DNA of 28,328 nucleotides, from NCBI GenBank assembly GCA_038825625.1, contig JAWBOZ010000002.1:1-28328 (forward strand), written 5' to 3'. The stretch's first letter is position 1, and each line of letters begins with the position of its first letter. Positions 9,605 to 24,622 of this stretch are shown in pieces. The translations under genes were made by a program, and so were the position numbers. This DNA is from Candidatus Methanomethylicia archaeon (GTDB lineage: Archaea; Thermoproteota; Methanomethylicia; Culexarchaeales; Culexarchaeaceae). The notes under the pieces are model-generated. The model was given only the letters and a program-made list of their open reading frames with translations. It was not told where the DNA came from and did not search any database.

Positions 9605-10111
9605 TTAATAGATCACGCTTATCTTAAAATCTGTAATTCCACCATCATAGAATATTGTTCCCCTATATGTATTTCCTAATTTCCATGGGCTTGCAGATAC
9701 ATCTTCCTCAGCATATATTGTTGCTATACAACCTTGTGGTATCAACAAACATCCACTTGAAATTATGACATCTTTTGATGATCCATAAACACTTCCAAAT
9801 AACCCAATACCATTTATTTCTACATTATTATTGCCACTAAATGTTACGTTCACCTTTTGATTTTCCGTATCTATACTCACGCTTTTTATCTTTATTGTTG
9901 TGGTCCCCATATTTCTAATCACTATTTGTATTCTTATATGATTTGTTGATGGGTTTAGTATTATCTTTGAGTCTGATGTATCGATTTTCACTATGTTTAT
10001 TGCCCCACCGAACCATCCCATCATTGTTGATGCATATGCTACTGCCATTCCCAGCGATACTGCTAATAGTATTAATGAGACCATTATTGCACTTATTCCC
10101 TTATTACTCAT
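9605..10111 (-). CDS. Archaeal type IV pilin with a canonical class III signal peptide (candidate major pilin)
   Basis: MSNKG|ISAIMVSLILLAVSLGMAVAY: K-G|I-S cleavage site plus hydrophobic helix, followed by a beta-rich domain (IQIVIRNMGTTTIKIKSVSID). Confidence 0.85.
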   Translation of the reverse strand: MSNKGISAIMVSLILLAVSLGMAVAYASTMMGWFGGAINIVKIDTSDSKIILNPSTNHIRIQIVIRNMGTTTIKIKSVSIDTENQKVNVTFSGNNNVEINGIGLFGSVYGSSKDVIISSGCLLIPQGCIATIYAEEDVSASPWKLGNTYRGTIFYDGGITDFKISVIY

Positions 10112-10134
10112 TTTATCCCTCTAGACTTTTATGG

Positions 10135-10141
10135 TTTATAA
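10135..10141 (-). promoter_or_regulatory. Candidate TATA box giving the pilin gene its own promoter
   Basis: TTATAAA 24-30 nt upstream of ATG 10111, preceded by purine-rich AAAATAAG. Confidence 0.45.
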
Positions 10142-10187
10142 CTTATTTTACCTAGACCCATTTGTGCAGTGACTTTTTATATGTTTT

Positions 10188-10916
10188 TCACAATATTACA
10201 TCAAGTTGTTTTATTGCAAATAATGCTACTGACAGTGGGATACTTACTCCCTCCAACTCTCTTTCATATGTAAATATTGCTTTTTCAAAGCCGTATCCCC
10301 TCATATATGCTATTTTAATGTCTCCTTTATATGTGATCATGATTTCTCTACCCCATCTTCTTTTTATGAATAATCTTTTATCTCCATATATTGCTTCCAT
10401 CGGTCTCATAAACCCCATCCTATATGCTTCAAAAATCTTTTCCTCTCCCCTTTTTATAATGAATCCAGCGATCTTGTAATTTTGGAATATTATTGTATAT
10501 TCTTCCGGATCCTTTATTTGGTATATGGGTTTTAGAATTCCTATTCTCTTAGCTTGTGCTATTAATTTTCTTTCGTCGTTTATAATTTTGTAAATATTTA
10601 TTGGCGGTTCTATATTTTCTAAAGGTTTATGATATGATAGTATTAATGTATTTTTCAATTTATTTTCGTAGTTAATTATTTTTTGCATTTTCTCTATTGA
10701 TATGGAATATTGTTTTGAATTTTTATTGTATTCAATAATATTTTCATGTATGAAGTTTTTCATAATTGCACTTACTCTTCTTAAATCCGTCTTCTTCCCT
10801 AATTTTCTTGCAATATCTTTTGATGTAAATTTATGTATAGTTTTGCTTCTGCTGTTTTCAGCTTCCATTTTAATTATTTTTATTATCTTATATGTTAATT
10901 CTGGATCTGGATTCAA
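10188..10916 (-). CDS. Hypothetical protein: N-terminal winged helix-turn-helix plus C-terminal beta-rich domain resembling the tubby/LURP-one/scramblase fold
   Basis: FTSKDIARKLGKKTDLRRVSAIMKNFIHENIIEYNKNSKQYSI resembles a wHTH. The C-terminal half has repeated short strands (IYKI, IAQAKR, IYQI, FIIK, IFEAYR, LFIKRR, IAYMR) ending in one hydrophobic helix (SIPLSVALFAI). TTG start with GGTGG RBS. The fold call is by eye. Confidence 0.55.
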   Translation of the reverse strand: MNPDPELTYKIIKIIKMEAENSRSKTIHKFTSKDIARKLGKKTDLRRVSAIMKNFIHENIIEYNKNSKQYSISIEKMQKIINYENKLKNTLILSYHKPLENIEPPINIYKIINDERKLIAQAKRIGILKPIYQIKDPEEYTIIFQNYKIAGFIIKRGEEKIFEAYRMGFMRPMEAIYGDKRLFIKRRWGREIMITYKGDIKIAYMRGYGFEKAIFTYERELEGVSIPLSVALFAIKQLDVIL

Positions 10917-11901
10917 CTTTCATTGCCACCATAATATTTCTTAATTCTTTCTCCAATTCACTCTTCTTTTCATTAAGTCTACAAACTTCTTCTTGTAAGT
11001 TTTCTCTTCTTCCTGTTAACATTTTAACCTCCTTCTCCAATCTGTCCTTCTCATTTTTAAGTTCCATTACTCCTTTTTCTAGATCTTTACTTTTCTCTTC
11101 CAGTATTTTTAGGTAGGAAATTCTTAAATTTGTATTCTTAAGTATCTCTTCATATTCCTTAACTTTTTCAATTAATGTATTTGCTATGCTTGATATCATT
11201 CTTTCTCTCTCTTCAATCCCCTTTTCCCTTTTTTGTAATTCTTCTTCATACATTAATAATTCTTCCATTCTCCTTTTAGTTTCCATATCTCTTCTCTCAA
11301 TTTCTTCTATTACACTTTTTATCTCCATCTTTGTTGATGTTATTTGGTCTATTATTCCTTTATATTCTTCTATTAACTTTTTTAAATTTGATGCTGTCTC
11401 AACGGTCTCCTTCTGTACTGATGTTGTGGTGGCTATATTTTTCATTGCATTTATTTCTAAATCTTTTATATTGATTATGTTCTTCATGGTTTCTTGATGT
11501 ATTGCATATACGTTACCTATTTTTTCTGCTATATTATTTATGTTTTTATCAATTGCTTCCTTTAATTGTATCAATGTTTGTGTTGCATTTTCCATCCTTT
11601 TATTTAAATCATCTATTATAGTTATCCTTTTCAAAACTTCTTTTTCAAAATCTCTCTCTGTAATTTTCTCAGTTAATTCTTTAATTTTATCAATTTCATG
11701 AGTTAATTCCTCAAATTTCTTACTTGAAGTTATAATTTTTCCTACAGATTCTTCAATTTCGTTGGGTTGAATCTTTTCCAGCTCTGCTTCTATTTTCATA
11801 ACTCTTGTAGTTGTATCGTTTAATTTGTCGTTTAACATATTTAGTGTTTGCATGATCCATTCCAGTTTTTCCTTTAATTCTTTTGCATTAAATTTGAACA
11901 T
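10888..11901 (-). CDS. Soluble long coiled-coil protein (337 aa)
   Basis: E/K/I/L-rich heptad pattern along the whole length, no TM segment or ATPase motif; GAGAGGA RBS; overlaps the wHTH gene by 29 nt. Confidence 0.8.
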   Translation of the reverse strand: MFKFNAKELKEKLEWIMQTLNMLNDKLNDTTTRVMKIEAELEKIQPNEIEESVGKIITSSKKFEELTHEIDKIKELTEKITERDFEKEVLKRITIIDDLNKRMENATQTLIQLKEAIDKNINNIAEKIGNVYAIHQETMKNIINIKDLEINAMKNIATTTSVQKETVETASNLKKLIEEYKGIIDQITSTKMEIKSVIEEIERRDMETKRRMEELLMYEEELQKREKGIEERERMISSIANTLIEKVKEYEEILKNTNLRISYLKILEEKSKDLEKGVMELKNEKDRLEKEVKMLTGRRENLQEEVCRLNEKKSELEKELRNIMVAMKVESRSRINI

Positions 11902-12006
11902 TCCTCTCTTTCTAGAATTTGAATTTTGATATTAAAATCATATTATGCTTAATTTTTGGTTTTAAATACGATTTTATGTTTTAAAATTTTGGGTTTGTAG
12001 TATATA
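11902..12006. promoter_or_regulatory. Divergent promoter region between the coiled-coil arm and the T4P operon
   Basis: Very AT-rich 105-nt gap. TTTTAAAA (11979-11986) lies 21-28 nt upstream of ATG 12007, which has no RBS and may be leaderless. TTTTAATA on the minus strand lies about 30 nt upstream of ATG 11901. Confidence 0.45.
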
Positions 12007-13563
12007 ATGATTTTACATAGAATCATTAAGAGTCCAAAGATAAATTATGACAACTTTAATCTTATAATATTTAAGCCTAGAATACATAAGGATGCATCCA
12101 TCTTAGCTTCATATAAAATTTGCAACGACCAGGTTCACGTCATTGTAGCTGAACATAATGGTGAAGGCTTATACATGATATCTGAACCTGACCTCATAGA
12201 TATTGAATTAAAAGTTTATAGTGAGCTCTCAAAAATATTGAAATTTGAATTAAACCTTCCATTTATTAGGTCTCATACAGATTTATCCATGCATGTTCGT
12301 AATCAAGTTTTAAGGATAGCCCAGGATTATGGCTTTAAAGACTTATATGAATTAAGTTTAGATCGTATCATATATTATATTTCCAGGGATATTGGTTATG
12401 GGTATATAGATCCTCTAATACGTGATGCAGATATTGAAGATATTAAGTGTGTTGGTCATGATACCCCATTCCTTATTTGGCATAGAAGATTTGGTCATCT
12501 TGATTGGCTTACCACAAATATTATTCTAAATGAATATGAATTAAATTCATTAGCTTCTAAACTTGCTCATATGTGTGGTAAACATGTTTCTATAGCCTTC
12601 CCCATCGTGGATGCCATTTTACCTGATAAGCATAGGCTTTCCATATGTTATGGTAGGGAGATAAGTTCCAAATCAACTAATATTTGTATTAGAAAATTTA
12701 GAGAGAAACCATTTACTATTATGCATTTAATTTATGATTTCTCGACTTTAAGTCCGCTTATGGCATGTTACTTATGGCTTTTAATTGAAAATAAGCGGAA
12801 CATATTCATCATTGGCGGTACTGCCAGTGGTAAAACTACACTTTTATGTGCTTTAGGTGCATTGTTTAAGCCGGGGTGGTCTGTTGACTCCATAGAGGAT
12901 GTTCCTGAAATAAAGATTCCAGTCCATGGCTGGGAACCTCTTGTAGCTAGACATGTTTATTCATTGGATAGTAAACAGTTTGAAATCTCCCTTTTTGATT
13001 TAGTTAAAGTTGCTATGCGTAAACGTCCAGACTATATTGTTGTTGGTGAGATTCGTGGTGAAGAAGCTTATGTATTATTTCAGGCTGCTGCAACTGGGCA
13101 TGGTTGTATGTGCACTATGCATGCTGACTCTTTGGAGTCAGCAATTAAGCGTCTCTCCTCTCCACCAATGAATGTTTCCACAACCTATATTCCACTTATG
13201 AATTGTGCCATTGTATTGAGAAGCATTGATATTGGTAAGAGTATTAGAAGGAGGGTTGTTGGTATTTATGAGATGAAATCCTTCAATGATTATCATGAGA
13301 TTTTCAAATGGGTTCCAGTAAATGATAGTTTTGCACCGTTTTCAATTGATTCAATAGTATCCTCCAGTATTCTTTTGAATAAAATTGCTGAAGAGCGTGG
13401 ATGGTCTTCTAGGGATTTGGTTAATGAGATGAAAGTTAGGGTGGCTTTTCTTGAAGATTTGAATAAACGTGGTGTAAGGGAGTATGATGATTTTGTTTCT
13501 TACCTCAGATTATTCAATTATTCTAGAAGTTCAAAGGTGATTGAAGTTGTCCATGGAACCTAG
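12007..13563 (+). CDS. Type IV pilus / type II secretion assembly ATPase (VirB11/TadA/ArlI superfamily)
   Basis: DPLIRDADIEDI, Walker A GGTASGKTT, Asp box SIEDVPEI, Walker B MRKRPDYIVVGEIRGEEA, His box TGHGCMCTMHA, SPPMNV. Confidence 0.95.
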   Translation: MILHRIIKSPKINYDNFNLIIFKPRIHKDASILASYKICNDQVHVIVAEHNGEGLYMISEPDLIDIELKVYSELSKILKFELNLPFIRSHTDLSMHVRNQVLRIAQDYGFKDLYELSLDRIIYYISRDIGYGYIDPLIRDADIEDIKCVGHDTPFLIWHRRFGHLDWLTTNIILNEYELNSLASKLAHMCGKHVSIAFPIVDAILPDKHRLSICYGREISSKSTNICIRKFREKPFTIMHLIYDFSTLSPLMACYLWLLIENKRNIFIIGGTASGKTTLLCALGALFKPGWSVDSIEDVPEIKIPVHGWEPLVARHVYSLDSKQFEISLFDLVKVAMRKRPDYIVVGEIRGEEAYVLFQAAATGHGCMCTMHADSLESAIKRLSSPPMNVSTTYIPLMNCAIVLRSIDIGKSIRRRVVGIYEMKSFNDYHEIFKWVPVNDSFAPFSIDSIVSSSILLNKIAEERGWSSRDLVNEMKVRVAFLEDLNKRGVREYDDFVSYLRLFNYSRSSKVIEVVHGT

Positions 13564-15241
13564 AAAATTATTTCTTATTCCATTGGGTTTTGCTTATAGA
13601 ATTTTTGGTGGTATGGCCAACAGTTTTTCAAAAAAGTTTGGTTTAAATGATGCTATTCTCCGTTCTGGACTGAGGATTAGCCCACAAGGTTATTGTTCAA
13701 TATTCCTCTTCATAATATCCTTCATAATCTTACCCGTTTCAATAATTTTTTCATGTATAATTTTCCTATGTAATTTATCCTTACTTCTATTTATTGTCCC
13801 AATACTTCTTATCCTTATTAGTATTATATTTCTCTATGTTTTCCCATTGATTAAATCATCTATGCGCAGTAATGGTGTATGGTCCGAGCTTCCCATAATA
13901 TCCACATATTTTAGTATACTGGGTTTATCTCATGTACCAATTTATAGGGGGTTTGAAAAGCTAGTCTCTCAAAACATATTTCCTTGGTTTAAATTTGAAA
14001 GCGAATTATTCTTTATAGATTATATGTTTTTCAGTAGGGATCCATTAGTTTCCATAAAGAATCTGATTTCCAATCATCCTTGTAAAGATTTTAGGGATTA
14101 TCTAGATTCATATGTTAGGTATGTGGAGAGTGGAGGTTATCCCGCGGATTTTCTATTGGATTATAGTTCAAAGTTGAGTGATCGCTTCTCACATGAATTT
14201 AAACGTTTTTCTGAGGATGCTAGTTTATTCGGCGACATAATAATATCATTATTCGTTTTTCTACCTTTAGGTCTAATTAGCATGTTTATAATAATGAATC
14301 CCATAAGTTCATTATCATGGTTGAGATTATATGGTTTTATTCTCTCACCAATTATAACCATCTTAATTTTCGTAGTTGTTGACTCAAATCAATTGAAGTT
14401 TCCATTTAATTTTGGTAGATATAAACGTTTATTCCTCATATCATTCTTAGGCTCTATACTTATTACAACTATTTGTAATATTTTTAGTTTGGATTTTCCA
14501 TCATTATTTACTCTCTCTGTTACTTCATTACTAGCTCCACCATGTTTGCTTTATGAGTTCGACATTAGAAAGGCGAAATTATTGGAATTGAATTTACCGA
14601 AATTTGTTAGAGATATTTCTGAATCAATAAAGGTGGGTTTAAGTATTGAGGATGCTATGGTTCTCATGGAAAAGAATTCATATGGTTCCACTTTAAATGG
14701 AATTATTAGGAAAATTAATCGTTCTCTCTCTTTTTCTTTAACTAGTGTTAGTGAAATATTTAATGAAATAATTTCTGGGATAAATTCATGGTTTGCAAAA
14801 GCAACATTTTGGCTTATTGGTGAAGCCATATCTACGGGTGGTGGACGTTCTGAAGTTTTTTCACATCTTTCTAAGTTTTGTGAAGATTATTATTACTTTA
14901 AACATAAAGTTGAGAGTGAACTTAGAATATATACTTTGATAGGTTATTCTTCTTCAATAATGTTACTTTTCGTAGTTTCTCAACTCATCAAATTCTTAAA
15001 CATTTCATTATTTGGCTGGTCTGTACCATTCAATATCGTCCCAAACATAACTTCATTTGATAAAGAGTTGAGCTCAATTTTGGTAGATACAATTTATTCT
15101 GTGATTACTTTCTTATCCTTTTTGATCGGTATTTTGGTGGGTAAAGTGTCTGGTGGGACCATTTTCAGCGGGTTTAAACATGCACTAATTTGCTGTTATA
15201 TATGCATTTTAGGCATTTATGGGGTGTCTTCCTTATGGTGA
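13541..15241 (+). CDS. Type IV pilus membrane platform protein (TadC/ArlJ-like, two T2SSF domains)
   Basis: Many TM segments flanking two cytoplasmic domains (ELPIISTYFSILGLS; NLPKFVRDISESIKVGLSIEDAM; EAISTGGG). Directly downstream of and overlapping the ATPase. ATG 13553 is an alternative start. Confidence 0.9.
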   Translation: MKLSMEPRKLFLIPLGFAYRIFGGMANSFSKKFGLNDAILRSGLRISPQGYCSIFLFIISFIILPVSIIFSCIIFLCNLSLLLFIVPILLILISIIFLYVFPLIKSSMRSNGVWSELPIISTYFSILGLSHVPIYRGFEKLVSQNIFPWFKFESELFFIDYMFFSRDPLVSIKNLISNHPCKDFRDYLDSYVRYVESGGYPADFLLDYSSKLSDRFSHEFKRFSEDASLFGDIIISLFVFLPLGLISMFIIMNPISSLSWLRLYGFILSPIITILIFVVVDSNQLKFPFNFGRYKRLFLISFLGSILITTICNIFSLDFPSLFTLSVTSLLAPPCLLYEFDIRKAKLLELNLPKFVRDISESIKVGLSIEDAMVLMEKNSYGSTLNGIIRKINRSLSFSLTSVSEIFNEIISGINSWFAKATFWLIGEAISTGGGRSEVFSHLSKFCEDYYYFKHKVESELRIYTLIGYSSSIMLLFVVSQLIKFLNISLFGWSVPFNIVPNITSFDKELSSILVDTIYSVITFLSFLIGILVGKVSGGTIFSGFKHALICCYICILGIYGVSSLW

Positions 15242-18200
15242 ATAAAGAGGCATTAATTCTTCCTTTAGCTATACTTTTCCTATTACTTATAACTCCATGC
15301 TCAATTTGCCAATTGTATTATCCTCTTGCTCCACCATTTAATGAGTTTCAATATTTATGCCATTCCCGTGGGACAGGGTATTACTCTTACTCTTATGATA
15401 TATATCGTGGTATGCTGAAGGGTTATTGCACATCCACTAAAAATATTGGTTCATTACTGGATGAGGCTGATTTAACTCTTTTCCTAAATGGTGTTTTTTC
15501 ATCCCCATTTAATGGTTTTATTAAAAGTTTACGTATAAGATACACATTTAAAGGTAAATTGTATGTTAAATCTATCTGTTTACCCAATACGTTTTCAGCT
15601 ATGGCTGAAGTTGGATTGTATGTAGATTTTACCAATTTAAGAGTAACTTTGACTTCTAAAACTTTAACCCTGTACTACTCTGGTGAAGATGAATACATTT
15701 TCTATGATGTGGGTAAGAGGGTGTTTAAAGATGTGAATCTAAAGGTTAGTAAAGGTGATCTTGTAGCTTTTTCAGTTATTTTATCTATACGTAGCATATC
15801 CACTGGAGCCTTAGAAGATTACGCATATTCTCTAGCGGACTTTATGAGTGGAGATTATGGTTTACTAATTTCCTTATCAATAGAATACCTAGAAGATTCA
15901 TATATTATTGGGTCAATAAATGCATCTAAGGCATATGTGAGTGATAATATTTTAATAGATGGATACTTGGTGAATAGTAACGGAAACGGTATAGCTCAAT
16001 CCACAATTAAACTATATATCGATGATAATTATATTTCATCAACATATACTGATAGCAATGGTCATTTTACTTTTTCATATACGATACCAATAGATATTGC
16101 CTCAGGGGAGAGAAAGTTTAAAGTTCTTTTTGAAGGAAATAACTATTACTCATCATCTGCAAAGGAGTTCACCGTGATCATACCGTCCTTTTCATTAAGT
16201 GCTTCAAAGTATAGTTTAAGAATACCTGTGGGATCCATTAGATATATAGATCTATACATTAACGATCTTTACGGTTATGATCTTCCGGTTGAAATAAATG
16301 TTGCTGCTCCACCAGATTGGTTGGATTACGGTCTTTTAGGAAATAATCCATCGGATCCTCCATTCCAGCTTTATTTGTATTTTATTGCTCGTGATGTAGG
16401 CGAAGCTGAAATAGAGATTTCTGCTAATGGTCCTGACGGTCAAGCTAAGAGAATAATTCTTCATATAGAAGGTTTCATGGAGCCAACATATACAATTTCA
16501 GTTACACCGGAGATTAATGAGGTTTTTCAAAGTTCATCAATACAATATAGCGTTGTAATAACTCCAATAAATGGTTATGAAGGTAATATAAACTTATATC
16601 TTGAACATGGAGGATTAATATGTTCATCATTTTTCTCTACAAATCCAGTGATGATCTCTTACTATGAAAAAACCGTCACTTTAACCATCACTGTAAATTC
16701 ATCTTCAAATGTGGGATTATATGATTTGATCGTTAAGGGTGTTGATAATAATGGCTTAACTATTTATAGTAATCCATTTAAACTTAATGTTAAAAGAGCT
16801 CCATATTTTAAAGTTTTTGTACAACCGAATTTCACATCGATATTTAATGATGAGTGGGCATTATTCCATGTTAATGTAACTGGATACAATAACTTTAATG
16901 GTATGGTGAATCTTGAAGTTTTATCTACTGAAAAATACTTTAAATACAATTTTTCGAAGAATCCTATATTTATATCCCCCTCAACTCCAACAGATGTTGT
17001 TAAGCTTAATGTATCATTAATAACTGATGTTAATGGATTGTTCCATTTAACTCTTCATGCATATTCAGATACTTATGAAGATTTCTATTCATTTACTATT
17101 GAAGTTAAATGTCGACCATTAATTAAATTACATTATATTAATTGGGTTTATGGTTCTTGGCATTATGAGAATAAGTTTTTACCTTATGAGGCTATGGGTA
17201 TCATAGTTAAATATGATCCCCTGAAAAACTGCTCCCTAATTTTGCCTCAAAGAGTGTTTGGAGAATTTAATTCCTCCAAAATAGATTTTACCACAGATAA
17301 TAATGGTTCACGCAGTTTTATAGTATTCTTAAATGGTTTGAATTGTCCCATTGGTTTATATGAAATACTCCTTTTGGATGATTCAAACAATATTATTGGT
17401 AAAAGCCACTTTCATGTTGATGGATTAAAATTGAGTTACTCAACTTATAACGATTATAGTCATAATGACATTAATTTTTATCTCCATTGGAATGTTGATA
17501 ATACTCCCTTGAGATTTAGAAATAGAACTCTTGAGGCTGTTTTAAACTCCTCAATTGGTGTTTTTAGAGGATACTTCATTGATGATTATGGAGTTATAAA
17601 GGTAAAAGTCCCACCATTAAAATTTAGTGAAGATTTAAATTATTCAATATATTATGCAAATTCATCATTTAAAGTTAAATCCACAAATTCAACTTTCCTC
17701 TTCACAATCATACCATTCAAGAATATCTTGTGTGATCTCTATAGTTTTGTTTCCAAAGACTTCAATTTTAATTTGAAAATGAGATTTTACTATTCCTCTG
17801 GGGATCCGGCAAAGGTTGAGATTTTAACTTTAATTTATTATGGAAATGTTGTTAATACTATTAGATCCACAAGTGATGATTATGGTTTTTCATCCATAAC
17901 CTTCAATACAAGTTTCTCCCGAAATATCACTATTAAATTAATGTTTAGAGATGTCAACACAGCTTTTGTTTCAAGGATTGGTGATTCCTGCAATTTAGTT
18001 TGGAATGAGATTATAGGTGTCTTATGTAATGTTAACTTTTATGACAATTATGTTGAATTTGCCTTGATCTCATCGTCAAAATTCATGGACTTGAGCTGCA
18101 TCCTTTACGTTACTTTTTATGATAATTTTGATAATGTTTATTACTCGTATTCCATGCCTGTCTCTTTGATTCATGGATCTATATCATATATTCCATTTCC

Positions 18201-18306
18201 ACTCTCAAAAGCTACTTCAAAAATTTATTTCAGCATTTTCTCCCATGGCAACAAACTTTTTGAAGGGTATTGGGTTAGGGGTGAATTTTCATGGAAGATG
18301 TTGTAG
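15238..18306 (+). CDS. Large secreted Ig-like repeat protein (~1022 aa), candidate pilus adhesin or S-layer-like component
   Basis: Start GTG 15238 (GTGA overlap with the TadC stop; ATG 15235 possible) gives a Sec-type signal VNKEALILPLAILFLLLITPCSIC. One Big-like domain, three tandem ~100-aa beta repeats, many N-x-S/T sequons, no C-terminal TM anchor. Confidence 0.75.
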   Translation: MNKEALILPLAILFLLLITPCSICQLYYPLAPPFNEFQYLCHSRGTGYYSYSYDIYRGMLKGYCTSTKNIGSLLDEADLTLFLNGVFSSPFNGFIKSLRIRYTFKGKLYVKSICLPNTFSAMAEVGLYVDFTNLRVTLTSKTLTLYYSGEDEYIFYDVGKRVFKDVNLKVSKGDLVAFSVILSIRSISTGALEDYAYSLADFMSGDYGLLISLSIEYLEDSYIIGSINASKAYVSDNILIDGYLVNSNGNGIAQSTIKLYIDDNYISSTYTDSNGHFTFSYTIPIDIASGERKFKVLFEGNNYYSSSAKEFTVIIPSFSLSASKYSLRIPVGSIRYIDLYINDLYGYDLPVEINVAAPPDWLDYGLLGNNPSDPPFQLYLYFIARDVGEAEIEISANGPDGQAKRIILHIEGFMEPTYTISVTPEINEVFQSSSIQYSVVITPINGYEGNINLYLEHGGLICSSFFSTNPVMISYYEKTVTLTITVNSSSNVGLYDLIVKGVDNNGLTIYSNPFKLNVKRAPYFKVFVQPNFTSIFNDEWALFHVNVTGYNNFNGMVNLEVLSTEKYFKYNFSKNPIFISPSTPTDVVKLNVSLITDVNGLFHLTLHAYSDTYEDFYSFTIEVKCRPLIKLHYINWVYGSWHYENKFLPYEAMGIIVKYDPLKNCSLILPQRVFGEFNSSKIDFTTDNNGSRSFIVFLNGLNCPIGLYEILLLDDSNNIIGKSHFHVDGLKLSYSTYNDYSHNDINFYLHWNVDNTPLRFRNRTLEAVLNSSIGVFRGYFIDDYGVIKVKVPPLKFSEDLNYSIYYANSSFKVKSTNSTFLFTIIPFKNILCDLYSFVSKDFNFNLKMRFYYSSGDPAKVEILTLIYYGNVVNTIRSTSDDYGFSSITFNTSFSRNITIKLMFRDVNTAFVSRIGDSCNLVWNEIIGVLCNVNFYDNYVEFALISSSKFMDLSCILYVTFYDNFDNVYYSYSMPVSLIHGSISYIPFPLSKATSKIYFSIFSHGNKLFEGYWVRGEFSWKML
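16189..17109 (+). repeat. Three tandem ~100-aa Ig-like protein repeats within the large secreted protein
   Basis: Repeats begin at 16189 (FSLSASKYSLRIPVGSIRYIDLYINDLYGYDLPVEINV), 16489 (YTISVTPEINEVFQSSSIQYSVVITPINGYEGNINLYL) and 16807 (FKVFVQPNFTSIFNDEWALFHVNVTGYNNFNGMVNLEV). Similarity is at protein level only. Confidence 0.7.
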
Positions 18307-19652
18307 AATATGTTTTTGTCGCTTTCATGTTTTTTCTATTAATATCCTCCAGCACCATCTTTATTGGATTCTTGGCTAAAAATTATATAATTAGATCAAA
18401 ACCAGATATTGAGCTTATATTTGATACTATTACTTCCATCTTAGCTCCTGAGAACTGTCTAGACCCAATTTTAATGCAATCATTATGTAAAAATTACTCT
18501 CTTACTTTTGGATATTACTTGGGTTATGATGAATTTAGAGATTTGATTAATTTTGAGGATTTCTCTTTCTCAATATTAATTACACCACCATTACACGTGG
18601 ATATTTCTTTCAAAGACGGTTTTATAATAATTAATTCATTTAATGTTTTTAATGATGTTCCTTGTGGAGATATTGCTTATATTCATATATTCCATAACAA
18701 TAATTTTAATCAAAGTTTTCATATACACTTAGATAGTGGTGTGGGAGGCTTATTCTTAGGGTTTAAGCCAGAACTAGCCGTGGTCTTTGTTGAATATGGT
18801 CCATTATTTGGTGTCGGAGTTTTTGGAGATTATAGAGTTTCTTATGGGTCATTTTTAAATGGTTTCATATTTCTATCATCTTTAGAGAGGAATTTAGGGT
18901 ATAGTCTAATGGATGGTGTTATTGGTGGAAGCATATACACAAATATTACGGATGAGGGTTTAATCTTTTATACTAGGGAATTCAGTCATGATTTTAACAT
19001 TTTTCATGGATACTTAAATGTATCCACATTTTTCAGAGGGTTTGGAAGTATCAGGGTTGATTTTGGGGTTTGTTCAAAAGATTATGATAACTTCACAATA
19101 ATAATCAGTGATTATTTTTCAATAAGCTCCATTAATATTGAAAGATATGATTTAAGGATTCCAATACACAGTAATTTTCATGGAAGCAATCTTAGGATGT
19201 TTTTAAAGTTTACTCGTATTGATGGTGAAATATACATATACTTTGGAGGATGGTCTGCTCAATCAAATTTCACACTAAATTGTGATATACCTTTATTTTC
19301 TAAAAATATCCTAATTCCAACACCACTATCACATAATTTATGGTCTTTATGGTTTGATCATTTTAAAAATCTTAATGATTATTATGAGATTCAAATGCCT
19401 TGTATACTTGTATATACTTTTAACTCAACATATCACATAATGTTTCTACCATACCTGAACATTTCCATAGGTTTCATGATAGGTAAAGGGGAATACTTTA
19501 GATTTTTAACTTTTGATAAACATGTCATTCTATGTATAATGAGTACTTACTCCAATACTTTAGGATTTAATTGTAAGTTAATTGAAAATTTCCTTCCCCT
19601 CCTCATGGAAATTTATAAAGCTGTTAATATTGGGTGGATTGCTCATGAATAA
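18291..19652 (+). CDS. Large pilin-like/minor pilin protein (453 aa) with an N-terminal membrane helix
   Basis: MEDVVEYVFVAFMFFLLISSSTIFIGFL has an EY motif before a hydrophobic helix, as in TadE/G-type pilins, but no basic leader. GGGGTGA RBS; beta-rich body with sequons. Confidence 0.6.
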   Translation: MEDVVEYVFVAFMFFLLISSSTIFIGFLAKNYIIRSKPDIELIFDTITSILAPENCLDPILMQSLCKNYSLTFGYYLGYDEFRDLINFEDFSFSILITPPLHVDISFKDGFIIINSFNVFNDVPCGDIAYIHIFHNNNFNQSFHIHLDSGVGGLFLGFKPELAVVFVEYGPLFGVGVFGDYRVSYGSFLNGFIFLSSLERNLGYSLMDGVIGGSIYTNITDEGLIFYTREFSHDFNIFHGYLNVSTFFRGFGSIRVDFGVCSKDYDNFTIIISDYFSISSINIERYDLRIPIHSNFHGSNLRMFLKFTRIDGEIYIYFGGWSAQSNFTLNCDIPLFSKNILIPTPLSHNLWSLWFDHFKNLNDYYEIQMPCILVYTFNSTYHIMFLPYLNISIGFMIGKGEYFRFLTFDKHVILCIMSTYSNTLGFNCKLIENFLPLLMEIYKAVNIGWIAHE

Positions 19653-20034
19653 TTTTGGGATTTCAAAGATAACTGAACTTTTGTTAGCTATGGTTATAAT
19701 TTCTTCCACTTCCACCCTACTAACTTCTTTTAGTTATAATATGGTGGGAGGTGAAGATCTTTACTCAATAACTTTTAGATTATTTTCAACATTAGAGAGT
19801 CATGGATATCTAACCATATTAGTATTCTCAAATAATTGGGATGACCTTGTGAACTATATAAAACCTTTACTGCCCAGCAACATATATTTCAAAATTTCTG
19901 TCTACGATGAAGACTTAAACGAAATCTTTTCTTATGGAGTAACTCCTTACAATTTTACTCAAGTAGTCTCTGTGCCATTTTTATTGAGTTATAGGGGGGT
20001 GACTAGAATAATTGTTCTCCAAATTTGGAGATAA
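19645..20034 (+). CDS. Minor pilin-like protein (129 aa)
   Basis: Start moved from 19582 to ATG 19645 (RBS GGGTGGA): MNNFG|ISKITELLLAMVII. Body has LESHGYL...WDDL..YIKPLLPSN and ends in VLQIWR. Confidence 0.7.
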   Translation: MNNFGISKITELLLAMVIISSTSTLLTSFSYNMVGGEDLYSITFRLFSTLESHGYLTILVFSNNWDDLVNYIKPLLPSNIYFKISVYDEDLNEIFSYGVTPYNFTQVVSVPFLLSYRGVTRIIVLQIWR

Positions 20035-20677
20035 AGGGCAAATAATAATCATTTTTTCAATTTTATACGTTGTTTTACTCTATCAGTTATCATATTCAAT
20101 TCCACATTATTCCCCCAATGTTTATTTCTCAAAAGATTATATTGATATGATAAATATCATGATAAAGAGATCTGCATGTGAAGCCTTCGTTTTTTCCATT
20201 AATGGTGGAAATTTTTCTGAACGATTATCATTGAATTTTAAGGTGTTGGAACATTTTTATCCATTATTAATAGATGTGCTTTCATACAAACTAACCTTTA
20301 AGGAGGATTTGGTGTATGCTGAAATAAACTTCTATGTATATGACTTTAAATTTAATTGCAAATATTATTTTAATTGCAATTTTTGTCTCGGTTTAGTAAT
20401 AAATAGTATTGAGCCATTCACTTCACCATTACCATCTATGAGAGGATTGAAAATTAATGTTAAAATTTTTGGTGATGATGAAATCTTTAATTATCCATTA
20501 AACTTCACAGTTTCTTATTCCTACAATCAATACCCTCTAACTATATATCCGCAGGTGCAATACTTGCAGGATCAAACCTATGCACTTATCTTCGTAATTC
20601 CCATAAATATTGACGTTTTCACCTTAAATATTTCTGATTGGAGGGGGGTGCACATTAATGTTAAAATCAAATACTAA
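20012..20677 (+). CDS. Minor pilin with class III signal peptide
   Basis: DKG|QIIIIFSILYVVLLY: canonical K-G|Q followed by a hydrophobic helix. Confidence 0.75.
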   Translation: MFSKFGDKGQIIIIFSILYVVLLYQLSYSIPHYSPNVYFSKDYIDMINIMIKRSACEAFVFSINGGNFSERLSLNFKVLEHFYPLLIDVLSYKLTFKEDLVYAEINFYVYDFKFNCKYYFNCNFCLGLVINSIEPFTSPLPSMRGLKINVKIFGDDEIFNYPLNFTVSYSYNQYPLTIYPQVQYLQDQTYALIFVIPINIDVFTLNISDWRGVHINVKIKY

Positions 20678-21329
20678 TGGACTCTCAAATATAATCTCCA
20701 GTTTAATAATATGTTCAACATTTCTGTTTCTCTCATTAACCATGTTCTATTTTGGGTCTTCTTATATAGGTGTATTGCAATCCAATTTGAAAATGGAATC
20801 TTCCATAAACTTTTTACGTAATGTTAGATTGCAAATGAATAGATTGTCATTCATTAATGATTCCATAACCATTTTCAATTCTAACTACATAATTCATTTC
20901 CTTGAACAAGGAAACATAACCATATTTATCAATGATATCTGTATTGGTGTTTTCCCATATGGCTCCATGGCGATCTATACCTATTATTCTTCATCACCAA
21001 TACATATTAATGATTTTATAAGGTTTAATGATACTTGTGGCTTAATATTTAAGTCTGATAATAAGATAGGTTTTGCACCATCCATTTCAATAGTTAATTT
21101 TGGCTCTAATTTTTACATGAAATTCTTCATAATTAGGGATTTTAAATGTATTAATAGATCATTCCATATACTTATCAAAAATATTTCTAAGAATCGCTAC
21201 ATTATTCAATGTAATGGATTTTTGAATGTAAGTGTTACTGGTTTCTATAATATTTCTAAGAATCTAAATGTTTATGGCACCATAAATCTCCTTTTTGAAT
21301 TAGTTTTCTTTGAGGTGATTCCCATATGA
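20658..21329 (+). CDS. Minor pilin-like protein
   Basis: MLKSNTNG|LSNIISSLIICSTFLFLSLTMFYF; 7 N-x-S/T sequons (NDS, NIT, NDT, NRS, NIS, NVS, NIS). Confidence 0.7.
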   Translation: MLKSNTNGLSNIISSLIICSTFLFLSLTMFYFGSSYIGVLQSNLKMESSINFLRNVRLQMNRLSFINDSITIFNSNYIIHFLEQGNITIFINDICIGVFPYGSMAIYTYYSSSPIHINDFIRFNDTCGLIFKSDNKIGFAPSISIVNFGSNFYMKFFIIRDFKCINRSFHILIKNISKNRYIIQCNGFLNVSVTGFYNISKNLNVYGTINLLFELVFFEVIPI

Positions 21330-21997
21330 TCTCTTCAGAAGTTTTTTCATCCATAATTTTGGTTAGCGTCATTTTAGTTGTTGGCATTTTAGGTGCTCAG
21401 ATATATACTTCATATCATAATGCCACTATGATCTCTTTTGAATTGAAGGATGTTGAATCCTTTTTTAGAGCTTTGGTATATAATTTAAATTCCCTAACGC
21501 CTATGGTTTATGAATTCTCCCTTAAACATGGAATCATAGAATTCTATGCGAATGGTTTCCAATATTTATTTTTTAATAATGAGACTATTTTTGCATCCTA
21601 TGTATTTATTATAAGATATAATTGTATACATAGGATTTATCCATCTCAAAAGCTAATTATTCATAGTGGGAATCTAACATACCTATCATATTCAATAATT
21701 GGTTATGATAATCACCTCGAATTACATTTATACCCAATTTTTATGAGTGAAAATGATTCAATTATTGTTTATACAATAGTCTTTAATGTTAATTCTTCTT
21801 TAAAAATTGTTGAAGGTGCATTTAGTTTCACACCAAAATTATCTATAATTAAACGTTCATGTAGTTTTCTTGAACCTAGATGGGTTTACACATTTCTCCA
21901 ATATAAAAATGATTCTTTTCAAAGATATTATCTTGCTCACATATTTCATCCATTGATTTTATATTGTGGAGTGATTTTGGTGGATGTTAAAGGGTGA
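21326..21997 (+). CDS. Minor pilin-like protein without a leader peptide
   Basis: MISSEVFSSIILVSVILVVGILGAQIY resembles the pilin 'SEV..IILVSI' helix. GAGGTGA RBS; ATGA overlap with the upstream gene; 6 sequons. Confidence 0.7.
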   Translation: MISSEVFSSIILVSVILVVGILGAQIYTSYHNATMISFELKDVESFFRALVYNLNSLTPMVYEFSLKHGIIEFYANGFQYLFFNNETIFASYVFIIRYNCIHRIYPSQKLIIHSGNLTYLSYSIIGYDNHLELHLYPIFMSENDSIIVYTIVFNVNSSLKIVEGAFSFTPKLSIIKRSCSFLEPRWVYTFLQYKNDSFQRYYLAHIFHPLILYCGVILVDVKG

Positions 21998-22002
21998 CAA
22001 TT

Positions 22003-22425
22003 ATGAGCAATATTATTTCCAATTGTATTTTAACATGTAGTTTTATTTTATCCATCTTCTTTGCTCTATCTTCCATAAACGTTTATTGTAGCAATATTTT
22101 ATACGGAGACCAAGTATATTATTTGACGTTATATTTCATTAGGGAATCAATTAAGTGTAACGTTTATAATTGCAGGAATTTAGGTTTTCAATCGTTTATG
22201 CTTTTAAGGATAAATATTTATCCTAAACTTATTGGGTTTACAATTTCAATAGATAATTATACATTACTCTTATCTAATGAAAATAAAAATATGCTTTTTA
22301 AAGTTCAATTATATCATATTAGCAACGTAATATATGTTCACTCTGAAGTATTGATATTCAATGAATATCTTTTTATCTCCATAACGAATAATGATGGTTT
22401 AATATTTATTGAACTTAAGGGTTAA
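22003..22425 (+). CDS. Minor pilin-like protein without a leader peptide (140 aa)
   Basis: GGGTGA RBS (21992-21997) favours ATG 22003 over GTG 21994. MSNIISNCILTCSFILSIFFAL parallels LSNIISSLIICSTFLFL of the 20658 gene. Confidence 0.6.
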   Translation: MSNIISNCILTCSFILSIFFALSSINVYCSNILYGDQVYYLTLYFIRESIKCNVYNCRNLGFQSFMLLRINIYPKLIGFTISIDNYTLLLSNENKNMLFKVQLYHISNVIYVHSEVLIFNEYLFISITNNDGLIFIELKG

Positions 22426-22460: not shown

Positions 22461-24608
22461 CTAGATCGCCTTATCCTCCTCTATTTGGCTTTTTATTTTC
22501 TTTATTGTTTCTTCACCCATTAATGGTATCCTTCTTAAATCTTCAATTTTTGCTCTTCTTAAGTCTTCTATGCCTCTGTATCCTGCTCTATATAGCATTC
22601 TTGCTCTAATTCTCCCTATACCTCTTAATTGCACAAGTTCAAGTAGTTCTGTTTTGCAGCCATATTCTAATCTCATGGTTATCTCCTCAAGTTTCCCCAC
22701 ATGCGCTTTTAACCCTAAAACTTTACATATTTCTGCCGCTGAATACATTAGCCATTGTGCTGTACTTGCAAGCATATATATGTCGCCTGAGCCTACATCA
22801 TACTTCTCTATGATCACATCTTCCTTCTCTTCATTTATCCAGTCATTTAGCATCATTGCGGTCTTTAACGCTTCTAAATATGATGTTTCGCTTTCATCCA
22901 TAATCTTTAAAACATCTATAAGCAACTCATCTTTCTTATCCAGGGCCTTTGACAAGAGATCTCTTCTATCCCTTCTTGTTAAATACAATCTTGGTACATC
23001 TGGAGTTGTTGATATCAAATGTAGGTATGCCAATTCCTTAGCAGCTGTACTTCTTCTCTTCAATCCATCTATGATATATACTGCTGATAATGGGTCTATG
23101 TATAATTCTGACACCCTTAACCCAAGTTTTGTGGAATATATGTATTCGCCATCAAATCTTATCATGCCATTTTCCAATAGGAATTTCAATACATTTTTAA
23201 GGGTATTCCTTATATGGATTCCACTTCCATATTGATGATAATAAAATGTTCTTTCTAGAAATTTAATTATTCCCTCCTCTGTTTTCACAAAGTCCGTGGC
23301 TATTATTGCCAATATATGTGATCTTAAAGCTGGTTCAGAAGCTAGTCTTGACCATATTCTCTCAGGTGGTGCTTTCACGTAATTTTCAAAAAGAAAATCC
23401 TTTTCCTCCTCTGTTCTCGCTATTAATATGGCGTCACCATTTTCATCGTATTTAGGTCTTCCAGCTCTACCAGACATTTGATGGTATTCAAGAATAGGTA
23501 TTATTTGGCTTCCTATACTACTATCATATCTATGATACCTCTTTATTATTACTCTTCTGGCTGGAAGATTTACTCCTGCGGCAAGTGTTGGTGTTGCGCA
23601 TATGGCTTTTATATTAAATTCTCTAAATGCTTTTTCAATGGTATTTCGTTGGTGGCTTGATAGTCCTGCATGATGGAAGGCAACACCACTCTTTATACAT
23701 GTGGCTAATTGTTCACTTATTCTTGTGGTTTCCTCTGAAGTAATTATTTCATCAGCTATTTCCATTAATTTCCTTTTCTCATCTGATTTTATATATCTAG
23801 ATACTAATGGTATTAGTTTTAATGCTGTTTCCTTAGCATCATTCCTAGTATTTGTAAATATAAGTACTTGTCCACCCTCCTCTAGGGTTTGTCTTGTCAA
23901 TGCATGGCATGGATCCATCTTCTCCTTTGAAACTTCTACAACACTTTGATCTTCATATATTATTTTTTGGTCCATATATACTCCCTTCTTTAAAGATACC
24001 GGTCTCCAATCACTCCTCACTAATTCCGCTTTCAACCATTCTGCTATTTCTTCCGAATTCCTTATTGTTGCACTTAATCCTATTAATTGGGCTCTTGGAT
24101 TTATTAATTGTAATCTTGATAATACAACTTCCAGTGTTGGGCCTCTATCAGGGTCGTTTAGAAGATGTATTTCATCTGCTATTACAACCTTTATCTCGTT
24201 TATCCATGAAGGTTTACTTCTAAGTATACTATCCGCCTTCTCATTGGTCATGACAATTATATCATAATTTTTAAGCCATGGTTCTGTACTGTCATAATCT
24301 CCAGTACTTATTGTTATTTTTATTCCTATTTCGCTGTATTTTTGCAGGTCTTCATATTTTTCTGAGGCTAATGCCTTTAACGGTGTTAAATATATTGCTT
24401 TCCCTCCATCCTCAGTTAACTTCTTCGTAATAGCTAATTCTGCTATTAAAGTTTTTCCGGAGGCTGTGGGTGCTTCTATGATTAAATTTTTACCGTTAAA
24501 TAAACCACATTCTATAGCTTTTATCTGTGGTGGGTACAGTTCATTTATACCACTTTTTAATAATACCCTTTTTATATTGTTTGATATTGGCAGATCATTT
24601 ATTTTAAT
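22461..24608 (-). CDS. hel308: Ski2-like SF2 DNA helicase Hel308/Hjm (715 aa), probable ATT start
   Basis: The track ORF (start 24251) lacks motif I. The frame stays open upstream through ELYPPQIKAI, EAPTASGKTLIAEL and YLTPLKALASEK to ATT 24608 (MKINDLPIS; GGAGGG RBS 6 nt upstream). DEIH, GLSAT, FHHAGL, TPTLAAGVNLPA, QMSGRAGRP and a C-terminal HhH (RGIGRIRAR) follow. Confidence 0.95.
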   Translation of the reverse strand: MKINDLPISNNIKRVLLKSGINELYPPQIKAIECGLFNGKNLIIEAPTASGKTLIAELAITKKLTEDGGKAIYLTPLKALASEKYEDLQKYSEIGIKITISTGDYDSTEPWLKNYDIIVMTNEKADSILRSKPSWINEIKVVIADEIHLLNDPDRGPTLEVVLSRLQLINPRAQLIGLSATIRNSEEIAEWLKAELVRSDWRPVSLKKGVYMDQKIIYEDQSVVEVSKEKMDPCHALTRQTLEEGGQVLIFTNTRNDAKETALKLIPLVSRYIKSDEKRKLMEIADEIITSEETTRISEQLATCIKSGVAFHHAGLSSHQRNTIEKAFREFNIKAICATPTLAAGVNLPARRVIIKRYHRYDSSIGSQIIPILEYHQMSGRAGRPKYDENGDAILIARTEEEKDFLFENYVKAPPERIWSRLASEPALRSHILAIIATDFVKTEEGIIKFLERTFYYHQYGSGIHIRNTLKNVLKFLLENGMIRFDGEYIYSTKLGLRVSELYIDPLSAVYIIDGLKRRSTAAKELAYLHLISTTPDVPRLYLTRRDRRDLLSKALDKKDELLIDVLKIMDESETSYLEALKTAMMLNDWINEEKEDVIIEKYDVGSGDIYMLASTAQWLMYSAAEICKVLGLKAHVGKLEEITMRLEYGCKTELLELVQLRGIGRIRARMLYRAGYRGIEDLRRAKIEDLRRIPLMGEETIKKIKSQIEEDKAI

Positions 24609-24622
24609 CCTCTTCCCTCCAT

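Follow-up and report, generated by a model that had tools for sequence, protein, structure and literature searches.

A type IV pilus locus of the Culexarchaeales and its relation to a minor-pilin module of the Thermoproteota

Type IV filaments are built from class III pilins, which are trimmed by a peptidase and then extracted from the membrane and polymerised by an ATPase together with a platform protein. To our knowledge, the archaeal systems studied so far, namely the archaellum, the Aap, Ups, Bas and Epd pili and the PilB/C pili of Haloferax, have few or no defined minor-pilin complexes. The present analysis concerns a twelve-gene pilus locus of the Culexarchaeia, which are, as far as we know, small-genome anaerobes known only from metagenomes. 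The locus lies in a stretch of 28,328 nucleotides (nt), hereafter the window, that comprises positions 1 to 28,328 of contig JAWBOZ010000002.1 of Candidatus Methanomethylicia archaeon (assembly GCA_038825625.1). The contig (C2) belongs to a genome from hot-spring metagenomes that comprises 0.98 Mb and is 75% complete. The paper that first described the Culexarchaeia makes no mention of pili or archaella.

In bacteria, minor-pilin complexes prime assembly and remain at the tip (Ellison et al., 2026, PMC13533445). The bacterial tip proteins PilC/PilY1 and MshQ, which lack an anchor, are exported by Sec with signal peptidase I and dock on the minor pilins by strand addition (PMC13533445). For the archaea, two censuses have described Thermoproteota loci of complex make-up whose accessory genes follow the platform gene and include large 'adhesins' of immunoglobulin (Ig) fold and minor pilins called untraceable (Makarova, Koonin and Albers, 2016; Sivabalasarma and Albers, 2026). 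The Culexarchaeia are not named in the text of either census. An earlier reading of the window from sequence only had supposed that related loci might already be catalogued without functional study, and this proved right in kind (Makarova et al., 2016; Sivabalasarma and Albers, 2026). Judged by its genes, the locus is that of a non-archaellum type IV pilus belonging to an unstudied clade, and profile comparison suggests that its six small proteins represent a five-family module in permuted order, one member being duplicated. Such loci are already catalogued as a kind; what is new here is the recurrence of the module across lineages, together with its leaderless members.

Core machine and minor-pilin module

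The locus encodes a VirB11-type secretion ATPase and a platform protein of the TadC type, and the matches to PF00437 and PF00482 confirm the ATPase and double-T2SSF platform of the sequence-only reading. The motifs of the ATPase are intact (Walker A GGTASGKTT, DYIVVGEIRGEEA and GHGCMCTMHAD). Its best NCBIfam match is the FlaI model NF058587, at 327 bits for a cut-off of 550, and the BasE model gives 300 bits for a cut-off of 1000; for reference, true FlaI proteins of the Sulfolobaceae score 681-697 bits and a true BasE 990 bits. The closest solved structures are those of Archaeoglobus GspE2 (afGspE 2OAP, 265 bits) and FlaI (4II7, 220 bits). The platform protein likewise scores 139 bits against the curated UpsF model (cut-off 400), 107 bits against BasF (1300) and 32 bits against ArlJ (550), and its closest relatives are found in loci of the Nezhaarchaeota and Methanomethylicia.

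An ATPase phylogeny had been proposed as a check, and in two IQ-TREE runs the Culexarchaeales ATPases group with none of the FlaI, Ups/Bas and Aap-type clades of the Sulfolobaceae. They form one clade, with support in the Shimodaira-Hasegawa-like approximate likelihood ratio test (SH-aLRT) of 99-100, and each of the three reference clades has an SH-aLRT of 100 in both trees. The Sulfolobaceae references were labelled by model score, by adjacency to UpsF or, for the Aap type, by elimination, and row mod_L061 of the second tree, which is not an ATPase, was disregarded. The nearest group to the Culexarchaeales clade is that of the Nezhaarchaeota and Methanomethylicia. Deeper nodes shift, and because the two trees disagree on the placement of Ups/Bas relative to the Culexarchaeales clade, no claim is made on it. 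Overall, the locus is assigned to neither the archaellum nor the Ups, Bas or Aap systems because the curated cut-offs are missed, the reference clades exclude the Culexarchaeales ATPases and no archaellin was detected, PF01917 having no match in the 75%-complete genome. The earlier claim of a non-archaellum pilus is thus supported, the ATPase lying outside the FlaI clade and the FlaI and ArlJ cut-offs being missed.

The candidate major pilin, pilin168, has a leader that ends in K-G and is followed by ISAIMVSLILLAV... (I-S-A) and then by a hydrophobic helix, a motif kept in six orthologues. It scores 29 bits against the UpsA model over residues 3-89 (cut-off 130), and none of the Pfam pilin models match it. 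By hhalign it is matched to the pilin of another locus, L040, at 98% and to that of contig C15 of its own genome at 88%. A prepilin peptidase is encoded elsewhere in the genome, in a frame of 271 amino acids (aa) on contig C20 (A24/PF01478, 49.7 bits).

The five-family module recurs in eight contexts (L054-L061) with a common order. Its first member is a class III protein of ~256 aa and its second a leaderless protein of ~180 aa. These are followed by a leaderless, pilin-like protein of 300-450 aa that resembles p453 of the window, by a small pilin in which GQ is followed by x-R-I-I-E (a mature end with conserved Arg3 and Glu6), and by a '[KR]GQ' pilin, 260-800 aa long, with Gln as its first mature residue. 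A TadC gene adjoins the module in seven of the eight contexts (L054 and L056-L061), where, as in L040 and on contig C15, the module comes after TadC, and in L056-L058 the first two genes precede the ATPase gene instead. In L055 (5839-11456), from a complete 1.6-Mb genome (G083), neither an ATPase nor a TadC gene adjoins the module, and its last member is a pilin-like protein of 795 aa.

Because p453, p129, p221 and p223a/p223b have profile matches among the module members, the small proteins of the locus are better regarded as members of this module than as orphans. These proteins are supported, on profile evidence, as representatives of four of the five families, and p143 fits the remaining one, that of the ~180-aa leaderless protein, only weakly. 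By hhalign, p129 is matched to the small pilins C15_156 (92%) and L040_8928 (93%), and p223a and p223b to the ~256-aa class III component (94.6% and, over 163 columns, 93.1%). The p221 profile matches the fifth member in L056-L058 over both halves (E 1e-8), and its N-terminal 59 columns are matched at 89% by hhalign to an alignment of p221-like module proteins whose first row is L054. The order p453-p129-p221, hereafter the trio, is constant in every locus compared. In L040, on an 88-kb contig, a p453-like protein (hhalign 92%) comes directly after the ATPase and TadC genes, and downstream of it follow, in order, the p129-like pilin, a pilin of the '[KR]-G then Q' type and, later, the pilin matched to pilin168. 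The sequence-only reading had held that the gene set was unlike any studied system. This stands for the core, in that the ATPase lies outside the Sulfolobaceae clades and the cut-offs are failed, and not for the accessory genes, since five of the six small proteins fall into recurrent module families.

The distribution of the module was traced with p453. Exhaustive HMMER searching with the whole profile returned seven Culexarchaeales representatives and weak matches of the N-domain in proteins of ~280-307 aa. The N-domain profile matched 32 of 401 sampled Thermoproteota genomes, comprising eight of Culexarchaeales and 24 in nine other families, and none of 15 Sulfolobaceae genomes; its E-values with the L054-L061 proteins range from 7e-14 to 5e-7. 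A locus on contig C15 of the genome studied here also corresponds one-to-one with the five-gene series (E 1e-7 to 1e-22). The module is therefore a concrete, comparable candidate set of initiation or tip proteins, and it is also found in complete single-contig genomes of other Thermoproteota, some of which may be cultured and hence testable strains.

All six small proteins had been read as pilin-like. Each has the N-terminal hydrophobic helix, but the class III cleavage motif is conserved among orthologues, across six genomes, in p129, p221 and p223a only. The orthologues of p453, p223b and p143 begin directly with the helix, without a leader. Among 42 orthologues that represent the pilin and the six small proteins, Pfam showed no recurrent family, NCBIfam has no family for any small protein, and no accessory protein of the locus had a family match in either database. 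The mature end of p129 reads F-S-R-I-(I/F/L)-E in five orthologues and I-S-K-I-T-E in the window. The paralogues p223a and p223b align at 86% by hhalign over 207 columns. For p143, identity is 31-38% in the Culexarchaeia loci L004-L006 and the same position is occupied in L007 and L008; a strain variant carries a 6-nt in-frame deletion in this gene. The gene calls of the ESM Atlas start p223a at the internal Met 40 and p221 at Met 50, so that the pilin nature of both is hidden by automatic annotation, and look-ups of p453, p223a and p221 in the Atlas gave nothing usable beyond these shortened calls.

The AlphaFold2 model of p453 has a mean predicted local distance difference test (pLDDT) score of 85.8 and a predicted template modelling (TM) score of 0.77. 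A helix at residues 2-36 and a short helical region are followed by β domains, namely an Ig/MG-like sandwich (98-180), a jelly roll like that of carbohydrate-binding modules (CBM; 190-334) and further β structure. VIA-align gives Z 15.6 to a jelly-roll domain of the CocE family and Z 9-10 to MG/Ig domains. In one Culexarchaeales family the orthologue has 772 aa, with three additional Ig domains. The AlphaFold DB model A3DPK4 (381 aa, uncharacterised), which by its accession range is presumably from a cultured Desulfurococcales species, aligns along the whole of p453 and is noted as a lead only.

The nearest non-Culexarchaeales ATPases, from the Nezhaarchaeota and Methanomethylicia (L015-L017), belong to loci without the module, in which the accessory genes lie upstream. 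In L016 (5544-13930) a 175-aa coiled-coil protein, three pilins and an 850-aa pilin-like protein are encoded upstream, and the ATPase, TadC, a 241-aa protein and a DNA ligase downstream. L015 (8493-13929) and L017 (1-5884) are shorter versions of this layout, and L017 has a 548-aa protein in place of that of 850 aa. In hhalign comparisons, the Culexarchaeales proteins had no match among the accessory proteins of these loci (the 175-aa coiled-coil, 548-850-aa and 241-aa proteins).

Gene layout, conservation and genomic setting

All twelve open reading frames (ORFs) of the locus were recovered by ORF listing and translation where the sequence-only reading had placed them (Table 1), and its nine overlapping plus-strand genes over 10.4 kb and its 105-nt divergent gap were both reproduced by direct reading. 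The plus-strand overlaps are, in order, 23, 7, 16, 8, 23, 20, 4 and 4 nt, so that the gene of the large Ig-repeat protein overlaps both its TadC and its p453 neighbour. This protein was confirmed as large and secreted, its length from the ATG in Table 1 being 1,023 aa rather than ~1022. In the divergent gap, TTTTAAAA lies ~28 nt upstream of the ATPase ATG, and AGAGAGG 7 nt upstream of the coiled-coil ATG on the opposite strand; the gap would act as a promoter region. Upstream of pilin168 are a TATA-like TTATAAA and GAGGG, a Shine-Dalgarno sequence.

Table 1. Coordinates of the pilus locus and of neighbouring features in the window; the last column gives amino acid identity to orthologues in L004-L008
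Feature	Positions	Strand	Properties	Orthologue identity
Ferredoxin-like gene, 98 aa	338-634	+	2x[4Fe-4S]; far left of the window	
Small helical ORF, ~76 aa	9350-9580	+	flanked by the HDAC gene and the pilin gene's 3' end	
Minus-strand arm	9605-11901	-	three genes: pilin168, 242-aa protein, coiled-coil protein	
pilin168, candidate major pilin, 168 aa	9605-10111	-	class III signal peptide; PilA/UpsA-like N-terminal half	51-68%; best conserved after the ATPase
242-aa protein, predicted cytoplasmic	10188-10916	-	no transmembrane stretch; overlaps the coiled-coil gene by 29 nt	
Coiled-coil protein, 337 aa, predicted cytoplasmic	10888-11901	-	40% charged, 2% Pro+Gly, no hydrophobic stretch	
Divergent intergenic region	11902-12006	.	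105 nt, AT-rich; TATA-like boxes facing both ways; read directly	
Plus-strand arm	12007-22425	+	nine overlapping genes, 10.4 kb	
ATPase, VirB11-type secretion, 518 aa	12007-13563	+	PF00437 93.4 bits, cut-off 24.9	62-75%
TadC/platform, 566 aa	13541-15241	+	PF00482 31.6 bits, cut-off 25.2; two T2SSF stretches, 25.2 and 21.6 bits	33-62%
Large protein, 1,023 aa	15235-18306	+	ATG 15235; Sec-type signal peptide, no C-terminal anchor	28-52%
Small proteins (next six rows)				21-49%
p453, 453 aa	18291-19652	+	leaderless, pilin-like; start M-E-x-V-V-E-Y-V-F	
p129, 129 aa	19645-20034	+	ATG 19645; small class III minor pilin; leader ends G	
p221, 221 aa	20012-20677	+	class III minor pilin; leader ends [KR]-G, mature end starts Q (6 orthologues)	
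p223a, 223 aa	20658-21329	+	class III minor pilin; leader ends [KR]-G, then [ILV]-S	
p223b, 223 aa	21326-21997	+	leaderless p223a paralogue; begins M-x-S-S-E-I-F	
p143, 143/140 aa	21994-22425	+	N-terminal hydrophobic helix, no class III motif	
Hel308 ORF	22461-24251	-	first-ATG version	
Hel308-MCM spacing	24252-24622		only ~370 nt	

That the genes of the locus are real and under purifying selection is seen in a comparison with a strain variant that is 95.3% identical across 8,359 nt of the locus, since no indel occurs and the ratio of nonsynonymous to synonymous substitution rates (dN/dS) is 0.17 for the coiled-coil protein, 0.085 for the ATPase, 0.15 for TadC, 0.175 for the large protein and 0.22 for p453, against ~1.0 in the wrong frames. 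Synteny across related metagenome-assembled genomes, another of the proposed checks, also holds: the twelve genes are syntenic in five Culexarchaeia genomes (L004-L008), with NAPRT/HDAC on one side and Hel308 on the other, the Hel308 flank being seen in L004-L006 only. The gradient of identity across the locus (Table 1) is typical of pilus loci. All close relatives of the ATPase (62-77% identity) are from genomes labelled Culexarchaeia or 'Methanomethylicia', and the next best reach at most 47%. Full-length orthologues of the large protein and of p453 are present in 10 of 12 Culexarchaeales genomes; in the remaining two, the ATPase has no orthologue either. The best explanation is that this non-motility pilus machine is a core, vertically inherited trait of the Culexarchaeales.

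The minus-strand arm had been read as a coiled-coil protein, a winged helix-turn-helix (HTH) fusion and a canonical pilin. The first and last of these stand, while the HTH label could not be verified, as none of six orthologues of the 242-aa protein matched a Pfam HTH family. A profile search of the PDB with this protein found no relative. It keeps its place in L004-L008, where the orthologues are 37-52% identical and 39 columns of the alignment are invariant. In the coiled-coil protein, heptad-like windows number 171 of 310, against 49 +/- 20 in shuffled sequences, and its weak Pfam matches are to coiled-coil families only; it is also syntenic, at 25-50% identity. Among the loci compared, both proteins were found only in those of Culexarchaeia, and the Nezhaarchaeota and Methanomethylicia loci have no counterparts. 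The large Ig-repeat protein, the coiled-coil protein and the 242-aa protein are thus lineage-specific additions of the order.

The locus is flanked by housekeeping genes, with PRPP synthase, a tRNA methyltransferase, LigT, the CCA enzyme, tRNA-Pro, NAPRT and HDAC on one side and Hel308, MCM, GINS and RFC on the other. As the sequence-only reading had stated, no gene for ArlH/KaiC, ArlF/G, Che proteins or a prepilin peptidase was detected among window ORFs of at least 80 aa, and MinD was likewise not detected among them. The first-ATG version of the Hel308 ORF lacks ~100 N-terminal residues, the DEAD match starting at profile position 100. Beside the locus, the ~76-aa ORF has no Pfam family, is kept at the same position in L004-L006 with 47-55% identity and was not detected in L007 or L008; it may be an unannotated thirteenth gene. 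The ferredoxin-like gene at the far left is unrelated to the pilus locus.

Two further pilus loci were seen in the genome. The locus on contig C15 (2947-10706) is a second complete one, with a pilin, an ATPase, TadC and the five-gene module (257, 172, 388, 156 and 275 aa), and contig C22 (7330-9320) carries a third, divergent pilin-ATPase pair that is interrupted by the contig end. Two complete loci and a third pair in a genome of roughly 1.3 Mb, together with the lack of a detected archaellin, suggest an attached or cell-associated lifestyle of the Culexarchaeia.

The large protein and the possible function of the pilus

The AlphaFold2 model of the large protein (pLDDT 81) is an all-β chain of β-sandwich, Ig-like domains. 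Foldseek returned only generic multi-Ig proteins with TM <0.2, including SbsC and MG-domain chains, and no β-propeller was among the fold matches. A PilY1-like reading is therefore rejected on the fold, which is a chain of β sandwiches without a propeller. A role as the main S-layer protein is judged unlikely because its gene is internal to an operon with translational coupling and occurs in one order only. Full-length relatives are found in the Culexarchaeales only, and the profile of the large protein has no homology with the 768-795-aa p221-like proteins of other loci. Directly after the signal peptide stands an invariant L-A-P-P-F/Y segment; the N-terminal two thirds of the protein are better conserved, and the C-terminal third is the most variable.

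We lean, with moderate confidence, towards an adhesion pilus that is primed and tipped by the module and carries the large protein, whose attachment is inferred. The peptidase would trim pilin168, p129, p221 and p223a, and the ATPase and platform would polymerise pilin168 into the filament. The trio, p223a/p223b and p143 could form an initiation complex that ends at the tip, where p453 would expose its Ig domain and CBM-like jelly roll. The large protein would be exported separately by Sec and, because it has no anchor of its own, held by the module complex, its likeliest docking part being the L-A-P-P-F segment with the better conserved N-terminal two thirds. The output would be attachment to surfaces, polysaccharide or other cells, and the coiled-coil and 242-aa proteins may serve in cytoplasmic positioning or regulation. 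Gene order, translational coupling, the binding-type domains of p453 and the long extensions that module members carry elsewhere (the 768-795-aa p221-like proteins in L055 and L061) point to this proposal. The sequence-only reading had likewise suggested a tip complex and roles in adhesion or DNA capture, roles that we too can only infer. More tentatively, the large protein could be the first archaeal tip protein supplied in trans, docking on p453 or the trio by L-A-P-P-F and its N-terminal domain, in which case the module would be an archaeal equivalent of PilIJK(H) and 'leaderless pilins' a regular component of it.

Several observations weigh against an adhesion pilus with a tip of this kind. 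The filament itself is predicted from its genes, and five identical contigs of 150-266 nt in a library labelled metatranscriptomic, which cover the pilin, 242-aa, coiled-coil, ATPase and TadC genes, are probably DNA. A complex prediction that combined p453 with the mature forms of p129 and p221 and with a fragment of the large protein (residues 24-233) scored 0.00, which is no evidence either way. The extreme C-terminus of the large protein, which corresponds to the docking element in bacteria, differs between two Culexarchaeales families. The dN/dS of this protein is close to that of TadC, without hypervariability, a pattern as compatible with a structural collar as with an adhesin. The link of p143 to the ~180-aa leaderless component is weak (hhalign 11%), and by analogy with ArlF/ArlG the leaderless small proteins might remain in the membrane, outside the filament.

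The last of these points leads to the main rival, an apparatus for passage through, or anchoring in, the envelope, in which p453, p223b and p143 would stay anchored in the membrane as a pseudo-periplasmic scaffold like ArlF/ArlG, and the large protein would be an S-layer-like collar through which the filament crosses the envelope. A role of this kind has been proposed for S-layer-like proteins in type IV filament loci (Sivabalasarma and Albers, 2026). It would suit the absence of a class III motif from three proteins in all orthologues, as well as a large protein whose build resembles that of S-layer proteins, with SbsC and MG-domain chains among its Foldseek matches, and evolves no faster than TadC. 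The large protein, however, has neither an anchor nor a detected S-layer family and is confined to the Culexarchaeales, while elsewhere the module works without it; moreover, p453 has a CBM-like jelly roll, and module members elsewhere bear long, variable C-terminal extensions that are typical of exposed parts. We therefore consider such an apparatus unlikely.

Two readings modelled on the Sulfolobales fare less well. A short, bindosome-like pseudopilus, on which the large protein and the CBM-like p453 domain would be presented to capture polymers or nutrients, would agree with that domain, with BasE and BasF being among the best NCBIfam matches and with one of the two trees, in which the ATPase clade stands beside a group containing Ups/Bas. 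That grouping is gone in the second tree, however, and the scores with the BasE and BasF models stay far under their cut-offs. A crude motif scan of the genome turned up no class III signal on a substrate-binding protein, the window has no ABC transporter, and the presence of a dedicated, well conserved PilA-type pilin gene also speaks against a pseudopilus, which we regard as improbable. Still further down stands an Ups-like pilus for cell-cell contact and DNA exchange. The N-terminal half of pilin168 weakly resembles UpsA and the locus adjoins the Hel308, MCM, GINS and RFC genes, but these neighbours, which lie on the opposite strand, have housekeeping roles in replication, and a Ced-like gene was not detected in the window. 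Since the UpsA and UpsF cut-offs are not reached, the ATPase falls outside the UpsE clade and the minor-pilin module, not found in any of the 15 Sulfolobaceae genomes searched, is missing from Ups loci, this function appears very improbable.

Comparison with known systems

The bacterial systems, in which PilY1 or MshQ sits on PilK-type minor pilins, provide an analogy for the adhesion pilus and not a homology. As with PilC/PilY1 or MshQ, several minor pilins are encoded together with a large, Sec-exported protein that has no anchor (PMC13533445), and the proposed logic of priming the filament and staying at its tip would be shared. In contrast to PilC/PilY1, the large protein has no C-terminal β-propeller, and there is no homology in sequence or fold. 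Its conserved end is N-terminal, whereas that of the bacterial tip proteins is C-terminal, and three members of the minor-pilin set are leaderless, unlike those of the bacterial complexes.

With the archaellum the locus shares FlaI as the best NCBIfam match of its ATPase, a TadC/ArlJ-like platform and leaderless helix proteins that recall ArlF/ArlG. It differs in that no ArlCDE or ArlF/G/H/X was detected among the window ORFs and the FlaI and ArlJ models are not reached. Aap loci carry an Fe-S protein, AapX; here no Fe-S protein lies in or beside the locus, and the ATPase is outside the Aap-type clade, as labelled by elimination. Subsystem 4G of Pyrobaculum and Thermoproteus has MinD/FleN-like proteins and diverged arCOG05609 ATPases, and the window has no MinD-like gene. 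The Ups and bindosome systems of the Sulfolobales (subsystem 4I) resemble the locus in their ATPase and TadC core and their PilA-type pilins, and UpsF and BasF are the best NCBIfam matches of the platform. Despite this, every score falls well short of its cut-off, the Ups/Bas clade does not include the ATPase, and neither BasABC nor class III sugar-binding proteins are encoded in the locus.

Clade 4A of the Desulfurococcales ('subsystem 4A') also has an ATPase, a platform, a PilA-family pilin and at least three 'untraceable' pilin-like proteins encoded after the platform, and the five-family module is probably the 'minor pilin set' of this clade. A large Ig-fold 'adhesin' is often present there, whereas here the Ig chain is separate, Sec-exported and without a PilY-like propeller. 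The platform is a single gene in the Culexarchaeales and two genes in clade 4A, and the gene order is permuted, with the trio first and the duplicated class III member after it. The ATPase is nearer to those of the module-less loci of the Nezhaarchaeota and Methanomethylicia. Overall, the locus looks like a hybrid, with core genes nearest to the module-less loci and a module that resembles the C15 type.

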